Shown here piece after piece: positions 13,216 to 57,371 of a stretch of 64,000 bases of DNA; position 1 is the stretch's first letter, and each line of letters begins with the position of its first letter. The notes under the pieces are model-generated. The model did no database searches. It was not told the origin of the DNA and saw only the letters and a list, made by a program, of their open reading frames with translations. Origin of the DNA: Escherichia coli (lineage in GTDB: Bacteria; Pseudomonadota; Gammaproteobacteria; Enterobacterales; Enterobacteriaceae). Location: NCBI RefSeq assembly GCF_030384885.1, contig NZ_CP128613.1. One strand, 5' to 3'. A program made the position numbers and the translations under genes.

Positions 13216-13412
13216 TACTACTCCTGGGCGGTTTACAGGAGTAAGTGTAGACGGCGGTACTGAAAAAACGAAACGAATAAATGATAACAGTAAAAAAATT
13301 CAATTATTCATAATAAATTTCATGGTGGCAAGAAATAGTTTCTTTTCTTCATCGCTCATGGCAGCAACGTTTAACATGTTGTCATCAAAATTATTGATGA
13401 TATTTTTTAATT

Positions 13413-13748
13413 TCAGTAACTGCAAAGGAGAAAAATAGTCACTCCGATGAGATTACTCAATACCAGCAATAGCTCCCCATCATATAAATAGCCCACCATA
13501 AGATTAATCTCTATCATCTCAATTGCTTTTTGTACAGCAAGCGCCGGTAAGATATTCTGACGAAGCATTTTGGCAATATCATTTTCATCCAGTTCATCGG
13601 GTGTTTTATCTAATAAAGAATTATACCAGTTTATTAAACCACTTTTGAAAGCGAACGAATCATATTGCAGGTGATAAATCTGTTTTAGGGTTTCTTTATT
13701 TTTCAATTTATAGTGCCTTTGTTTGCTATAATTTTTCTGAAATAACAT
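13413..13748 (-). CDS. Hypothetical small protein with hydrophobic C-terminus (island ORF 5)
   Basis: 111-aa ORF in AT-rich island; start overlaps stop of upstream ORF (TGATG), indicating translational coupling; no family recognised. Confidence 0.45.
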   Translation of the reverse strand: MLFQKNYSKQRHYKLKNKETLKQIYHLQYDSFAFKSGLINWYNSLLDKTPDELDENDIAKMLRQNILPALAVQKAIEMIEINLMVGYLYDGELLLVLSNLIGVTIFLLCSY

Positions 13749-14215
13749 CAGCGAGTTTGCTCAGGTGCAGGGATGACCGAAATTGTCATGTATTTTTTCA
13801 GTCTGGCTTCTCGTTTCACACCTTTCGGATCTGAACCAAAAGGAAGCGTCAAGCATGGTGAGTCAACGGTTTGGATTGTCCAGAGAGAATCACCAATGAA
13901 TCTGAAATTGATGCTATCCGCTGTAACGGATAATCCCTCAAAACTTCCCGTCGCATACTCATTACCCAAACGTACGGTCTCTTTAACTCCATCGTTAACA
14001 TCGATAAGGACAATTGTCAGTGATTCCTCAAAAATAACGTCATCCGTCAGAAAAAGGATATAACGCTGGTCATTAACCTGAATTGCCGCTTCCAGTATTT
14101 GCCCTGGTACAATAATACCTGTGTTATTGCCATTAAGCACAACGTCAGACTGAGCCTGAGATAAATCAGTCGCTTTGTGAACCTTGACCAACGATATCGA
14201 ATTAACCTGTTGCAT
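13748..14215 (-). CDS. Hypothetical protein (island ORF 4)
   Basis: ORF track gives 13748..14308 from a GTG; I prefer ATG at 14215 (MQQVNSISLV..., 155 aa) because the upstream part is better explained by a separate out-of-frame glycine-zipper ORF ending 2 nt before this ATG. Confidence 0.45.
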   Translation of the reverse strand: MQQVNSISLVKVHKATDLSQAQSDVVLNGNNTGIIVPGQILEAAIQVNDQRYILFLTDDVIFEESLTIVLIDVNDGVKETVRLGNEYATGSFEGLSVTADSINFRFIGDSLWTIQTVDSPCLTLPFGSDPKGVKREARLKKYMTISVIPAPEQTR

Positions 14216-14217
14216 AA

Positions 14218-14358
14218 TCAATTCCACAAGCGCCCCATTTCCCATGCGGCAAGTGCACCGCCGACAAAGCCGCCAATAAGTACGCAAACAGGTGCTCCTG
14301 GACCACACATCAATCCGGTCAACGCACCGCCTGCGACAGCACCGGCAATAATATTCAT
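14218..14358 (-). CDS. 46-aa double glycine-zipper transmembrane micropeptide (island ORF 3)
   Basis: My own translation of the minus strand: MNIIAGAVAGGALTGLMCGPGAPVCVLIGGFVGGALAAWEMGRLWN, stop TGA 2 nt before the next start; two GxxxG-type glycine zippers; not in ORF track (below length cutoff). Confidence 0.4.
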   Translation of the reverse strand: MNIIAGAVAGGALTGLMCGPGAPVCVLIGGFVGGALAAWEMGRLWN

Positions 14359-14541
14359 CCGGGTACGACTGCCAGTGGTTTTAACAGATTTACGCTCACC
14401 GTTACGTATCCTGCCACCACTCAGGTTGCAGACGCGGCAGTCACAGCCTTGACGGTGTTGAAACTAAAGTTCAGGTGATAGTCTGATGTTCATAGTTTGA
14501 GCATTATCCCCTGACAGAATCAAATCAAGCAGTGTCAATGA

Positions 14542-14799
14542 TCACGTGTATATATCATTTAAAGCATTATCAAGCCAATCTTCCATGTTTTTAATTTTAG
14601 CCCGCGCATATAAATCATTCATAACATCCTCATAACTCTGTCCATCATTGACCATACAATTAGCTGTATGAGGCAGAACATGTATAAAATCAGACAATAT
14701 AAAACAAGCCTTTGAATTTCCAGAGTTAGCTGCAATTCTGATATCAATCAATCCTCTGGCAATCAATTTAAGAATAACATCTTGCATTTTAATTTCCAT
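14542..14799 (-). CDS. Hypothetical small cytoplasmic protein, immunity-protein-like (island ORF 2)
   Basis: 85-aa ORF in AT-rich island, co-oriented with neighbours; no family recognised. Confidence 0.45.
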   Translation of the reverse strand: MEIKMQDVILKLIARGLIDIRIAANSGNSKACFILSDFIHVLPHTANCMVNDGQSYEDVMNDLYARAKIKNMEDWLDNALNDIYT

Positions 14800-14881
14800 A
14801 TCATCCAGTTAAATTTCAGTAGTAAATCGTCTATCAAAAAAAGATGAAATTAACATTCATAAATTTATTACAATATGAAAA

Positions 14882-15235
14882 TCAAAAATATACATCATCA
14901 GCTTCTACCGAAAACTCCATGGCTCCTAAGGCACCTAAATCAATACTAAATATAGTATCACTTTCCTTAGCACTCCCAACATAGATAAAATAGCCTAAAT
15001 CTCCGTCTTGACCTATCAAAAAATAGTCAGGTTCCACTTGTTGAATATCATATGTTTCATTTCTTTCAATAAGATCAGAATAGTTATATAAATATAATGT
15101 TTCGTGCTTCTTATTAGTTATTTCATAGGTCTCACTATCTTTAATTTCTTCTATCAAAAAACGTTTATACACTGGAGGAAACTTGATTGACATGTCAAAT
15201 TCAATTTTATTTATATATTCTATAATTTTATTCAT
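14882..15235 (-). CDS. SUKH/SMI1-KNR4-like immunity-type protein (island ORF 1)
   Basis: 117-aa ORF; FPPVYKRFLIEE ... YFLIGQDGDLGYFIYVG resembles the SMI1/KNR4 (SUKH-1) pattern (aromatic/Pro N-terminal motif plus GxDGxGxxxY) seen in polymorphic-toxin immunity proteins; assignment by eye only. Confidence 0.5.
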   Translation of the reverse strand: MNKIIEYINKIEFDMSIKFPPVYKRFLIEEIKDSETYEITNKKHETLYLYNYSDLIERNETYDIQQVEPDYFLIGQDGDLGYFIYVGSAKESDTIFSIDLGALGAMEFSVEADDVYF

Positions 15236-15469
15236 GTTAAGAATACCTGAAAGATTATTTATTGATTATCTTGATGAATATATCTTCACTTTTTATTTTC
15301 ATTTACTCATCGCGGAAATACACATTGCCTTGTAGACAAGCGCTAATAATACGTTATGAACCTGACTTCCGCCAGACAATCAATCTATGAATTCATTACG
15401 CCGTAGTGTTTTAGAAAGACACTTTCTGACCAGATGGTGAACCATATACTACATCGCGCATTATAAAAA

Positions 15470-29582: not shown

Positions 29583-29690
29583 CGTTGTTCATGCCGGATG
29601 CGGCGTGAACGCCTTATCCGGCCTACAAAATAGGGCAAATTCAATATATTGCACCATCTTCCCAAGCCTGATAAGCGTAGCGCATCAGGC
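29583..29690. repeat. REP/BIME element pair with RIP-like linker
   Basis: gccggatgcggcgtgaacgccttatccggcctacaaaa...caaattcaatatat...gcctgataagcgtagcgcatcaggc; same architecture as 37010..37100. Confidence 0.75.
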
Positions 29691-37009: not shown

Positions 37010-37180
37010 TCATGCCGGATGCGGCGTGAACGCCTTATCCGGCCTACAAAAGCACGCAAATTCAATATATGGCAGAGATCATGTAGGCCTGATAAGCGTA
37101 GCGCATCAGGCAATTTAGCGTTTGAAACTGTTTCTATGTTTCTTGCCGGATGTGGCGTAAATGCCTCACCCGGCCTGGTA
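37010..37180. repeat. REP/BIME cluster (three REP units) between chiP and glnS
   Basis: gccggatgcggcgtgaacgccttatccggcctac ... gcctgataagcgtagcgcatcaggc ... gccggatgtggcgtaaatgcctcacccggcc. Confidence 0.75.
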
Positions 37181-54358: not shown

Positions 54359-55897
54359 ATGGCTTTTGCCTCATTAATTGAACGCCAGCGCATTCGCCTG
54401 CTGCTGGCGTTATTATTCGGTGCCTGCGGAACGCTGGCCTTCTCTCCTTACGACGTCTGGCCTGCGGCGATTATTTCGCTGATGGGACTTCAGGCGCTCA
54501 CCTTTAACCGCCGTCCACTCCAGTCTGCCGCTATTGGCTTTTGCTGGGGATTTGGCCTGTTTGGCAGCGGTATTAACTGGGTCTATGTCAGCATCGCGAC
54601 CTTTGGCGGAATGCCTGGCCCGGTTAACATCTTCCTGGTGATACTGCTGGCAGCGTATTTGTCGCTGTATACCGGACTGTTTGCTGGCGTACTGTCGCGT
54701 CTGTGGCCGAAAACCACCTGGCTGCGCGTGGCGATTGCCGCCCCTGCTCTCTGGCAAGTGACCGAGTTTCTGCGCGGTTGGGTGCTGACTGGCTTCCCGT
54801 GGTTGCAGTTCGGCTATAGCCAGATTGACGGTCCGTTAAAAGGACTGGCACCGATAATGGGCGTGGAAGCCATTAACTTCCTGCTGATGATGGTAAGCGG
54901 CCTGCTGGCACTGGCGTTGGTCAAACGCAACTGGCGTCCGCTGGTGGTGGCCGTCGTGCTGTTCGCCCTTCCCTTCCCGCTGCGTTACATCCAGTGGTTC
55001 ACCCCGCAACCGGAGAAAACCATTCAGGTTTCGATGGTTCAGGGCGACATTCCGCAATCGCTGAAGTGGGATGAAGGCCAGCTTCTCAATACGCTGAAGA
55101 TTTACTACAACGCAACGGCACCGCTGATGGGCAAGTCATCGCTGATTATCTGGCCTGAATCGGCGATAACCGACCTGGAAATTAATCAGCAGCCGTTCCT
55201 CAAAGCACTGGACGGTGAGTTGCGTGATAAAGGTAGCTCGCTGGTCACCGGGATTGTCGACGCGCGTCTCAATAAGCAGAATCGCTACGATACCTACAAC
55301 ACCATCATCACGCTGGGTAAAGGTGCACCGTATAGCTACGAATCAGCCGATCGCTATAACAAAAACCATCTGGTACCGTTTGGCGAGTTTGTCCCGCTGG
55401 AGTCGATTCTGCGTCCGTTAGCACCGTTCTTTGATCTGCCGATGTCGTCATTCAGCCGTGGACCATATATCCAACCACCGCTGTCGGTAAATGGTATTGA
55501 GCTTACTGCGGCTATTTGCTACGAGATCATTCTCGGCGAGCAAGTGCGCGATAACTTCCGCCCGGATACCGACTATCTGCTGACTATCTCCAACGATGCG
55601 TGGTTTGGTAAGTCTATTGGCCCATGGCAGCACTTTCAGATGGCGCGAATGCGTGCGCTGGAGCTGGCGCGCCCGCTGCTGCGTAGCACCAACAACGGCA
55701 TTACGGCGGTGATTGGCCCGCAGGGTGAGATTCAGGCGATGATCCCGCAATTCACCCGCGAAGTGTTAACCACTAATGTGACGCCGACCACCGGACTCAC
55801 ACCGTACGCACGTACCGGCAACTGGCCGCTGTGGGTGCTGACGGCACTGTTTGGTTTTGCCGCTGTGCTGATGAGTCTGCGTCAACGACGTAAATAA
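54359..55897 (+). CDS. lnt: Apolipoprotein N-acyltransferase
   Basis: 512-aa ORF with N-terminal membrane domain and C-terminal nitrilase-like domain. Confidence 0.9.
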
Positions 55898-55900
55898 TCC

Positions 55901-55977
55901 CTTCTTATCGTGCCGGAATACATCCCGTATTTCGGCACGCTCGCCGGATGTGGTATCAGTGCGTTATCCGGATGACA
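55901..55977. repeat. REP-like palindromic elements downstream of lnt
   Basis: tgccggaatacatcccgtatttcggcacgctcgccggatgtggtatcagtgcgttatccggatgac. Confidence 0.5.
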
Positions 55978-56293
55978 AAATTCCCCTATCCAACTTTGGC
56001 ACATCTATTGCTTTGTTATACAAGGCAAAGCTTGAACCCGCGTCAGTACAACCCGGTTGCACCACAGCAATCCACCGGTAGCACCAAAAGAGTGCATTTT
56101 AAGAGTTTTGCTTCGGAATGGTGCGGCGCATCTCGCAAAAACAAACAATAAAACATCAATATCTTTACATTTAGCCAAACTAAATGTTACCTAACAAACA
56201 CAACACTGCACAATAAAGTTGCAGATGATAACAACACAAACACTCACAACGGGTATCCATGCGTTCTTAACGCAGAAGATAAAGGAGTTGGAT

Positions 56294-57202
56294 ATGCAAT
56301 TACGTAAACCTGCCACAGCAATCCTGGCCCTGGCGCTTTCCGCAGGACTGGCACAGGCAGATGACGCCGCCCCGGCAGCAGGCAGTACGCTGGACAAAAT
56401 CGCCAAAAACGGTGTGATTGTCGTCGGTCACCGTGAATCTTCAGTACCTTTCTCTTATTACGACAATCAGCAAAAAGTGGTGGGTTACTCGCAGGATTAC
56501 TCCAACGCCATTGTTGAAGCAGTGAAAAAGAAACTCAACAAACCGGACTTGCAGGTGAAACTGATTCCGATCACCTCACAAAACCGTATTCCGCTGCTGC
56601 AAAACGGCACTTTCGATTTTGAATGTGGTTCAACCACCAACAACGTCGAACGCCAAAAACAGGCGGCTTTCTCTGACACTATTTTCGTGGTCGGTACGCG
56701 CCTGCTGACCAAAAAGGGCGGCGATATCAAAGATTTTGCCGACCTGAAAGGCAAAGCCGTAGTCGTTACTTCCGGCACTACCTCTGAAGTTTTGCTCAAC
56801 AAATTGAATGAAGAGCAAAAAATGAATATGCGCATCATCAGCGCCAAAGATCACGGTGACTCTTTCCGCACCCTGGAAAGCGGTCGTGCCGTTGCCTTTA
56901 TGATGGATGACGCCCTGCTGGCCGGTGAGCGAGCGAAAGCGAAGAAACCAGACAACTGGGAAATCGTCGGCAAGCCGCAGTCTCAGGAAGCCTACGGTTG
57001 CATGTTGCGTAAAGACGATCCGCAGTTCAAAAAGCTGATGGATGACACTATCGCTCAGGTGCAGACCTCCGGTGAAGCGGAAAAATGGTTTGATAAGTGG
57101 TTCAAAAATCCAATTCCGCCGAAAAACCTGAACATGAATTTCGAACTGTCGGACGAAATGAAAGCACTGTTCAAAGAACCGAATGACAAGGCACTGAACT
57201 AA
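56294..57202 (+). CDS. gltI: Glutamate/aspartate ABC transporter periplasmic binding protein
   Basis: ORF 56219..57202; start at MQLRKPATAILALALSAGLAQA (signal peptide), 302 aa. Confidence 0.9.
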   Translation: MQLRKPATAILALALSAGLAQADDAAPAAGSTLDKIAKNGVIVVGHRESSVPFSYYDNQQKVVGYSQDYSNAIVEAVKKKLNKPDLQVKLIPITSQNRIPLLQNGTFDFECGSTTNNVERQKQAAFSDTIFVVGTRLLTKKGGDIKDFADLKGKAVVVTSGTTSEVLLNKLNEEQKMNMRIISAKDHGDSFRTLESGRAVAFMMDDALLAGERAKAKKPDNWEIVGKPQSQEAYGCMLRKDDPQFKKLMDDTIAQVQTSGEAEKWFDKWFKNPIPPKNLNMNFELSDEMKALFKEPNDKALN

Positions 57203-57209
57203 TTACAAG

Positions 57210-57359
57210 AACCAGGGGCGGAAATTCTAGCCCTCTCGATTGTTACGTAGCACGGACAGACTATACGCCTGATGGTCGTTCCCCATCGGGCCTGAAAACC
57301 GCAATACGCTGGGTAACAATCTTCGAGGGTAGCAGTTAACGCTGCTACCCTCTTTTTTC
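57210..57359 (+). ncRNA. sroC: Candidate SroC-type sRNA from the gltI-gltJ intergenic region, ending at an intrinsic terminator
   Basis: 169-bp intergenic spacer inside the operon containing hairpin gagggtagcagttaacgctgctaccctc (57325..57352) plus T-run; SroC is described at this position. 5' end not determinable from sequence. Confidence 0.5.
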
Positions 57360-57371
57360 TGGAGTAGATTT

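Follow-up and report, generated by a model that had tools for sequence, protein, structure and literature searches.

The lnt-gltI spacer

The window, meaning the whole 64,000-nt stretch of Escherichia coli DNA analysed here, carries lnt and gltI on the same strand. The features of the region are as follows.

54359-55897, + strand: lnt CDS (apolipoprotein N-acyltransferase), 512 aa plus stop, from the open reading frame list; left border of the spacer
55898-56293, no strand: lnt-gltI intergenic spacer, 396 bp, without an insertion sequence; free of gaps against the MG1655 spacer with its IS removed
55909-55939, + strand: hairpin just 3' of the lnt stop, 13-bp stem and 5-nt loop (inverted-repeat search and RNA fold)
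55943-55971, + strand: REP-like element, an extragenic palindrome with GCCGGATG-N13-TTATCCGG boxes and a degenerate interior (regular expression and fold, as a second hairpin)
55996-56012, + strand: σ54 (-24/-12) promoter TTGGCACATCTATTGCT, directed toward gltI, its TGGCA 297 nt upstream of the ATG
56049-56125, no strand: NtrC-like boxes, TGCACCA at 56058-56064, AGCACCAAAAGAGTGCA at 56080-56096 and TGGTGCG at 56119-56125, conserved in 11 genera and species
56164-56192, + strand: putative σ70 promoter, -35 TTTACA (56164-56169), 17-nt spacer and weak -10 TTACCT (56187-56192), in a highly conserved block
56191-56194, no strand: unoccupied IS5 target CTAA, single copy, 100 bp upstream of the gltI ATG, at the exact position of IS5D in K-12
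56230-56250, + strand: conserved C/A-rich element AACAACACAAACACTCACAAC in the gltI 5'UTR, read from the sequence; putative target of the GcvB sRNA
56294-57202, + strand: gltI CDS (periplasmic glutamate/aspartate-binding protein), 302 aa, ATG at 56294; right border of the spacer
57198-57360, + strand: SroC sRNA, from the gltI 3'UTR (Rfam RF00369, 170.8 bits, E=2e-37)

With lnt ending at 55897 and the gltI ATG at 56294, the spacer is therefore 55898-56293, or 396 bp; the preliminary description of this DNA had placed it at exactly these positions and given its length as about 400 bp. The Lnt protein of the window is 100% identical to that of MG1655 (tblastn), and the gene is annotated as lnt in the chromosome record NZ_CP027579.1.

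In an alignment with other Escherichia species, Salmonella, Citrobacter, Enterobacter and Klebsiella, 11 genera and species in all, the spacer has two parts. The 80-100 bp or so adjoining lnt are variable and carry hairpins and REPs, while the other 300 bp or so are strongly conserved and hold the σ54 promoter, the NtrC-like boxes, the TTTACA-N17-TTACCT block, the C/A-rich stretch and the ribosome-binding site. The conservation is that of non-coding regulatory DNA, with indels between genera. The four small ORFs of the spacer (40-67 aa) match no Pfam family, which together with this pattern of conservation speaks against a hidden gene. An Rfam search at a permissive threshold returned only sroC, downstream of gltI, and a sub-threshold chance match inside sroC, with no RNA family in the spacer itself.

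The hairpin next to lnt is common to all of the short-allele Escherichia sequences compared. It is followed by no T-tract and a terminator scan of 55850-56320 found no canonical terminator, for which reasons it is not called a terminator here; its stem-loop probably serves to stabilise or attenuate the transcript. The palindrome that comes after it has the GCCKGATG and TTATCMGG boxes, is imperfect and extragenic, and lies 3' of a gene, with the same boxes and 13-nt spacing as the canonical REPs found by regular expression at 29593-29621 and 37014-37042 of the window. Its interior is degenerate and "REP-like" is therefore the right term. Together, the hairpin and the REP-like element fold at -32.5 kcal/mol (z = -3.5). 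The REP-like palindromes reported for this spacer in the preliminary description are thus essentially right, in that one such element is present at 55943-55971, although the hairpin at 55909-55939 is not a REP.

An unoccupied IS5 target site

The same description held that K-12 MG1655 has an IS5 (insH) copy between lnt and gltI, and this agrees with the MG1655 annotation, where "insertion sequence:IS5D" occupies 687851-689045 and its insH3 (b0656) lies between gltI (b0655) and lnt (b0657). Aligned with the window, MG1655 proves to have not an IS5-free spacer of about 400 bp but one of 1,595 bp, made up of 396 bp, the 1,195-bp IS5 and a 4-bp duplication, with CTAA directly on both sides of IS5D. 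The alignment breaks at window 56194 and 56187, corresponding to MG1655 689046 and 687854. When IS5D and one CTAA are removed from MG1655, a 396-bp spacer is left which aligns with the window without gaps and is identical at 373 of 396 positions (94.2%). CTAA is among the listed IS5 insertion sites (PMC11677980).

Searches for IS5 itself gave only chance results. The 1,195-bp IS5D of MG1655, used as a blastn query against the whole 64-kb window, had only chance matches of at most 21 nt, and InsH had no tblastn match there better than E=0.06. For the 16-bp terminal repeat of IS5, GGAAGGTGCGAAYAAG, the best match in the window, a single one, has three mismatches, as shuffled sequence would lead one to expect. 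These DNA, protein and terminal-repeat searches found no IS5 remnants in the window. There is likewise no transposase ORF in the spacer, as had been claimed, since neither tblastn with InsH nor Pfam on the small ORFs found one, and the terminal inverted repeats whose search had been suggested occur at chance level only. None of the evidence gathered speaks against the absence of IS5. The site has the features of an unoccupied target: no IS5 body, termini or InsH, a single 4-bp target of the form YTAR, and flanks that are collinear once the IS is removed from K-12. The window is in the IS-free state of lnt-gltI that had been proposed for it, with CTAA present once and the flanks continuous.

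MG1655 680041-750000, in reverse complement, is collinear with the window as a whole, at a mean identity of about 95.6%. Over the 1 kb and 25 kb tested, identity reaches 100% with E. coli 2013C-4282 (NZ_CP027579.1, from 1903135; human stool, USA), a finished, circular chromosome record. The conclusion that the source is not K-12 is borne out by these two identities. Among 5,426 genomes, 2013C-4282 is the only one at least 99% identical to the first 25 kb, with the next best at 97.8%; that strain is a member of a sparsely sampled lineage.

The absence of the Rhs core at 13-15 kb, also part of the preliminary description, holds as well, in that window 13253-15463 replaces the 9.6-kb rhsC block of MG1655. 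There, 2.2 kb of small ORFs stand in place of rhsC-ybfB-ybfO-ybfC-ybfQ-ybfL-ybfD. These ORFs resemble orphan immunity genes that lack an Rhs core; two of them are as follows.

13416-13748, - strand: CdiI_3 immunity protein
14885-15235, - strand: SUKH/SMI1-like protein

The gltIJKL control region

The sequence TGGCAC-N5-TTGCW has one exact match in the whole window, at 55997-56012, and for 77 of the 80 species of Enterobacteriaceae whose loci were compared, a σ54 motif lies at a distance of 287-332 nt upstream of gltI. The 17-mer at 55996-56012 is identical to the K-12 σ54 ChIP-seq site OS04, a strong site, which was assigned to insH3 (PMC4591121) because in K-12 the IS5 comes next downstream. 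Its Salmonella homologue is bound by σ54 and is the site of an NtrC-dependent gltIJKL operon (PMC3844500), and both RpoN and NtrC bind the K-12 insH-lnt spacer in vitro by gSELEX (PMC8743547).

NtrC has a ChIP-seq peak at 688381-688461 of K-12, labelled "gltIJKL" (PMC4066584). Converted by way of the coordinate of the σ54 motif, which assumes the same genome version in both papers, and at a peak resolution of about 80 bp, this would correspond to approximately 56002-56082 of the window, just downstream of the σ54 promoter and where the GCACC/GGTGC boxes sit. The boxes at 56058-56125 would then be NtrC sites, sequence similarity and the ChIP peak being the guide to which of them NtrC uses. Placement of such boxes, and of the K-12 NtrC peak, downstream of a σ54 promoter is an unusual position for an enhancer; the arrangement is conserved across the Enterobacteriaceae.

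It has been reported that gltIJKL has both σ70 and σ54 promoters (PMC9731577). A consensus scan of 55850-56320 called no σ70 promoter, and for this reason the conserved TTTACA-N17-TTACCT block is offered here as a putative one. The CTAA target would lie within the -10/+1 region of this promoter, which the K-12 IS5 would have cut. A C/A-rich element of the gltI leader is a GcvB target and translational enhancer according to Sharma 2007, as cited in PMC4474525, and its exact nucleotides are taken here to be those at 56230-56250.

Taken together, the spacer is very probably the native, uninterrupted lnt-gltI region and the control region of gltIJKL, and the window would show the state that preceded the K-12 IS5 insertion. 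The first 80 bp or so after lnt would be a hairpin and one REP-like palindrome and the remaining 300 bp or so the control region proper, with the σ54 promoter at -297, NtrC-type enhancer sites, a probable weak σ70 promoter, and a 5'UTR containing the putative GcvB target. Upstream of gltI in the window, and contiguous with it, are the module that responds to nitrogen, the probable housekeeping promoter and the leader under sRNA control, so that nitrogen limitation could drive gltI and SroC directly, with SroC as the downstream read-out. The IS5 of the K-12 lineage, 1,195 bp long, entered CTAA 100 bp upstream of the start codon and duplicated it. Everything upstream of 56191, including the σ54/NtrC module and probably the σ70 -35 box, was thereby moved 1.2 kb away from gltI.

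This interpretation draws on what is observed here, namely the missing IS5, the precise position of the empty site, the collinearity with K-12, the population frequencies and the conservation across the family. For σ54 and NtrC binding, and for weaker induction in K-12, it draws on the literature on K-12 and Salmonella. The K-12 IS5 blunts the induction of gltI and SroC by nitrogen limitation (PMC9731577), and later papers, that one among them, credit Zinser 2003 with showing an effect of IS5 on the expression of ybeJ(gltI)-gltJKL. Miyakoshi et al. (2022, eLife, PMC9731577) report that nitrogen limitation does induce SroC in O157 and O111 strains, whose gltI upstream regions they describe as "devoid of IS5 insertion".

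Distribution of spacer states in E. coli

The states of the lnt-gltI gap were counted in 5,426 complete E. coli genomes.

1,834 of 5,426 genomes: contiguous short spacer as in the window
346 of 5,426 genomes: K-12 IS5 junction on the gltI side
351 of 5,426 genomes: K-12 IS5 junction on the lnt side
3,239 of 5,426 genomes (60%): 2.2-kb segment, containing rhom7, between lnt and the gltI promoter

The short, IS5 and long classes cover all but about five of the genomes. Those with the IS5 junction that were inspected, the best 60 of the 351 lnt-side matches and 8 more that were sampled, are all K-12 laboratory derivatives, including MG1655, C600, DH5alpha, DH1, HMS174 and RV308. The IS5 copy at lnt-gltI is a K-12-lineage trait, essentially confined to K-12 laboratory strains. 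The absence of IS5 from the window is ordinary, because the insertion is a known quirk of the K-12 lineage. The contiguous short spacer, which is found in O55:H7, O145, SMS-3-5, IAI39 and CE10 among others, is not the commonest state in E. coli, since most genomes carry the rhom7 segment. Split BLAST matches at this locus, at first suspected to be IS insertions, come from genomes that carry rhom7, and the suspicion of IS insertions was dropped.

The difference between the lnt-side IS5D junction (351) and the gltI-side junction (346) indicates about five K-12 derivatives that are rearranged on the gltI side. These recall the IS5-mediated rearrangements that are said to activate ybeJ-gltJKL in GASP mutants. 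Among the about five genomes that fall outside the three classes is E. coli KD602 (NZ_CM145715.1, 3288471-3290792), in which an IS1A copy adjoins truncated forms of rhom7 and ybeQ, an IS1-mediated deletion having taken the 5' part of rhom7, gltIJKL, rihA and neighbouring genes.

The rhom7 allele

Comparison by blastn with strain UTI89, which has the long allele, delimits the part of the window that is affected.

55895-56048, no strand: window segment without a BLAST counterpart in the long allele, 154 bp

In UTI89 this segment is replaced by 2,218 bp, with a gene of about 1.9 kb on the opposite strand and divergent from gltI. It encodes a protein of 625 aa that has a rhomboid domain and a C-terminal beta-propeller. 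The protein is Rhom7, the Shigella sonnei proteins being 92% identical to the UTI89 copy. In S. sonnei, Rhom7 is SSON_0610, with catalytic residues Ser133 and His187 (Liu et al. 2020, PMC7232013), and both residues are conserved in the UTI89 protein. Rhom7 of UTI89 as a tblastn query found nothing in the short-allele loci, nor was there matching DNA in the window spacer; the gene is absent from the window, K-12, and strains of the O55/O157, O145 and SMS-3-5/IAI39/CE10 types. Two other Escherichia, E. whittamii and Escherichia sp. MOD1-EC7003, have the long allele too.

In both alleles the σ54 core is at -297, and the next 36 nt are only 33-47% identical between them. Klebsiella aerogenes and another Klebsiella sp., near K. 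spallanzanii, each have an orthologue of Rhom7, at 48-52% identity, placed between lnt and gltI and oriented as in E. coli, with the σ54 motif kept between rhom7 and gltI. Homologues at about 30% identity are found in unrelated genomic contexts. An initial view of rhom7 as a recent insertion specific to Escherichia was softened after the orthologues were found in the same slot of Klebsiella. A search of the literature turned up no publication that connects rhom7 with the lnt-gltI gap.

It is conceivable, and is suggested here tentatively and at somewhat short of even chances, that the lnt-gltI gap is an old trans-species polymorphism for the presence or absence of rhom7. There would be two deeply diverged haplotypes, different even in the 50 bp or so around the σ54 promoter and both maintained in the phylogroups of E. 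coli as well as in other Escherichia species, with an orthologous rhom7 in the same slot of Klebsiella. If so, the window would represent the haplotype without rhom7, and the two haplotypes might tune the nitrogen control of gltIJKL and SroC differently.

Origin of the uninterrupted spacer

The single CTAA of the window, without a scar, is what a precise excision of IS5 from a K-12-like ancestor would leave. The window, however, belongs to a lineage distant from K-12, from which it differs by about 4.4% over 60 kb and, within the 396-bp spacer, at 23 positions. The uninterrupted sequence also occurs in 1,834 genomes of E. coli and in every other genus of Enterobacteriaceae that was compared, and IS5 junctions were seen only in K-12 derivatives among the genomes inspected; excision is therefore given almost no credence. 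IS elements are commonly collapsed in draft assemblies, and a copy might in the same way have been lost here through repeat collapse or in assembly. Against this, the window is identical, over the lengths tested, to a finished circular chromosome record, the same contiguous junction is seen in 1,834 independent complete genomes, and there is no IS5 fragment across the 64 kb, which makes an artefact of this kind exceedingly unlikely.

A more substantial alternative is that the short spacer is a deletion derivative of the long allele, in which case the window would be free of IS but would have lost a gene segment of about 2.1 kb adjoining lnt. That the short form could in principle reflect secondary loss follows from the presence of rhom7 in 60% of E. 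coli, in two other Escherichia and in the same slot of Klebsiella. The long allele is the E. coli majority (3,239 of 5,426) and is shared with E. whittamii and Escherichia sp. MOD1-EC7003, and the Klebsiella orthologues agree with it in position and orientation. Their divergence from the Escherichia proteins (48-52% amino acid identity, against 83% for Lnt) scales roughly with that within Escherichia (89-94% against 98-99%), which fits a long residence of a fast-evolving gene at lnt-gltI. REP elements, moreover, flank the junction in both alleles.

The deletion reading is nevertheless judged improbable. Both lnt and gltI were found in 73 of 75 non-Escherichia species loci, the two remaining loci ending before lnt, and all 73 have a spacer of 337-884 bp with neither IS5 nor a rhomboid gene. 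The sequence after the σ54 core in the short allele, TTGCTTTGTTATACAAGGCAAAC, is common to Salmonella and Citrobacter, while its long-allele equivalent is only 33-47% identical, which would suggest that it is the long haplotype that has been introgressed. No rhom7 remnant is detectable in the window spacer, and one structure is common to all short Escherichia alleles. The IS5 site, for its part, aligns uninterrupted in 11 of the 11 taxa compared. The favoured interpretation is that the short, IS-free state is ancestral for the family and that rhom7 was gained and spread by homologous replacement.

Comparison with other enterobacterial loci

The lnt-IS5D(insH3)-gltI locus of MG1655 has the same genes in the same order and orientation as the window, as well as the σ54 17-mer, the hairpin, the REP and the 5'UTR. 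It differs in the IS5 and the CTAA duplication at the equivalent of window 56191-56194, the transposase gene reading toward gltI. The O157 and O111 strains (PMC9731577) share with the window a region upstream of gltI that is free of IS5, and the O55:H7 and O145 genomes align end to end with the window spacer. They are, however, other lineages, at about 96-97% identity.

In Salmonella enterica, where the gltIJKL (STM0665) σ54 site is TGGCACGTCTATTGCTTT, a spacer of 353-356 bp likewise has the promoter at about -290, the downstream boxes and a C/A-rich UTR. The segment adjoining lnt is different there, lacking the hairpin and carrying another REP, and the C/A element is shorter by 7 nt. The long lnt-rhom7-gltI allele, as in UTI89 and S. 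sonnei, shares with the window the flanking genes and the position of the σ54 core (-297), and is 96% identical to it in the 245 bp that precede gltI. The difference is that it has the 2.2-kb rhom7 segment where the window has 154 bp that are unrelated or strongly diverged.

The IS-free state of lnt-gltI was already known, from the annotation of IS5D, from Zinser 2003 as cited in PMC9731577, and from Miyakoshi 2022, and the window is an ordinary member of the short-allele class. Its main relevance is as a caution that the lnt-gltI locus of K-12, the reference strain for regulation in E. coli, is atypical, the IS5 uncoupling gltIJKL and SroC from the σ54/NtrC promoter, and that genome-wide studies in K-12 assign the gltI σ54 promoter to insH3 (PMC4591121, PMC8743547). 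Sequences like that of the window show the wild-type wiring common to Salmonella and most Enterobacteriaceae. A fresher point is that wild-type E. coli has two forms of the locus, with and without rhom7, which is relevant when gltI regulation or rhomboid function is compared between strains. This polymorphism, with its diverged promoter-proximal haplotypes, is the one aspect that may merit separate attention.

An enterobacterial lnt-gltI locus, with a GltI 91% identical to that of E. coli, is also carried by CACSKA010000002.1, which is titled Chryseobacterium sp. 18061 and is probably a mislabelled or contaminated assembly.
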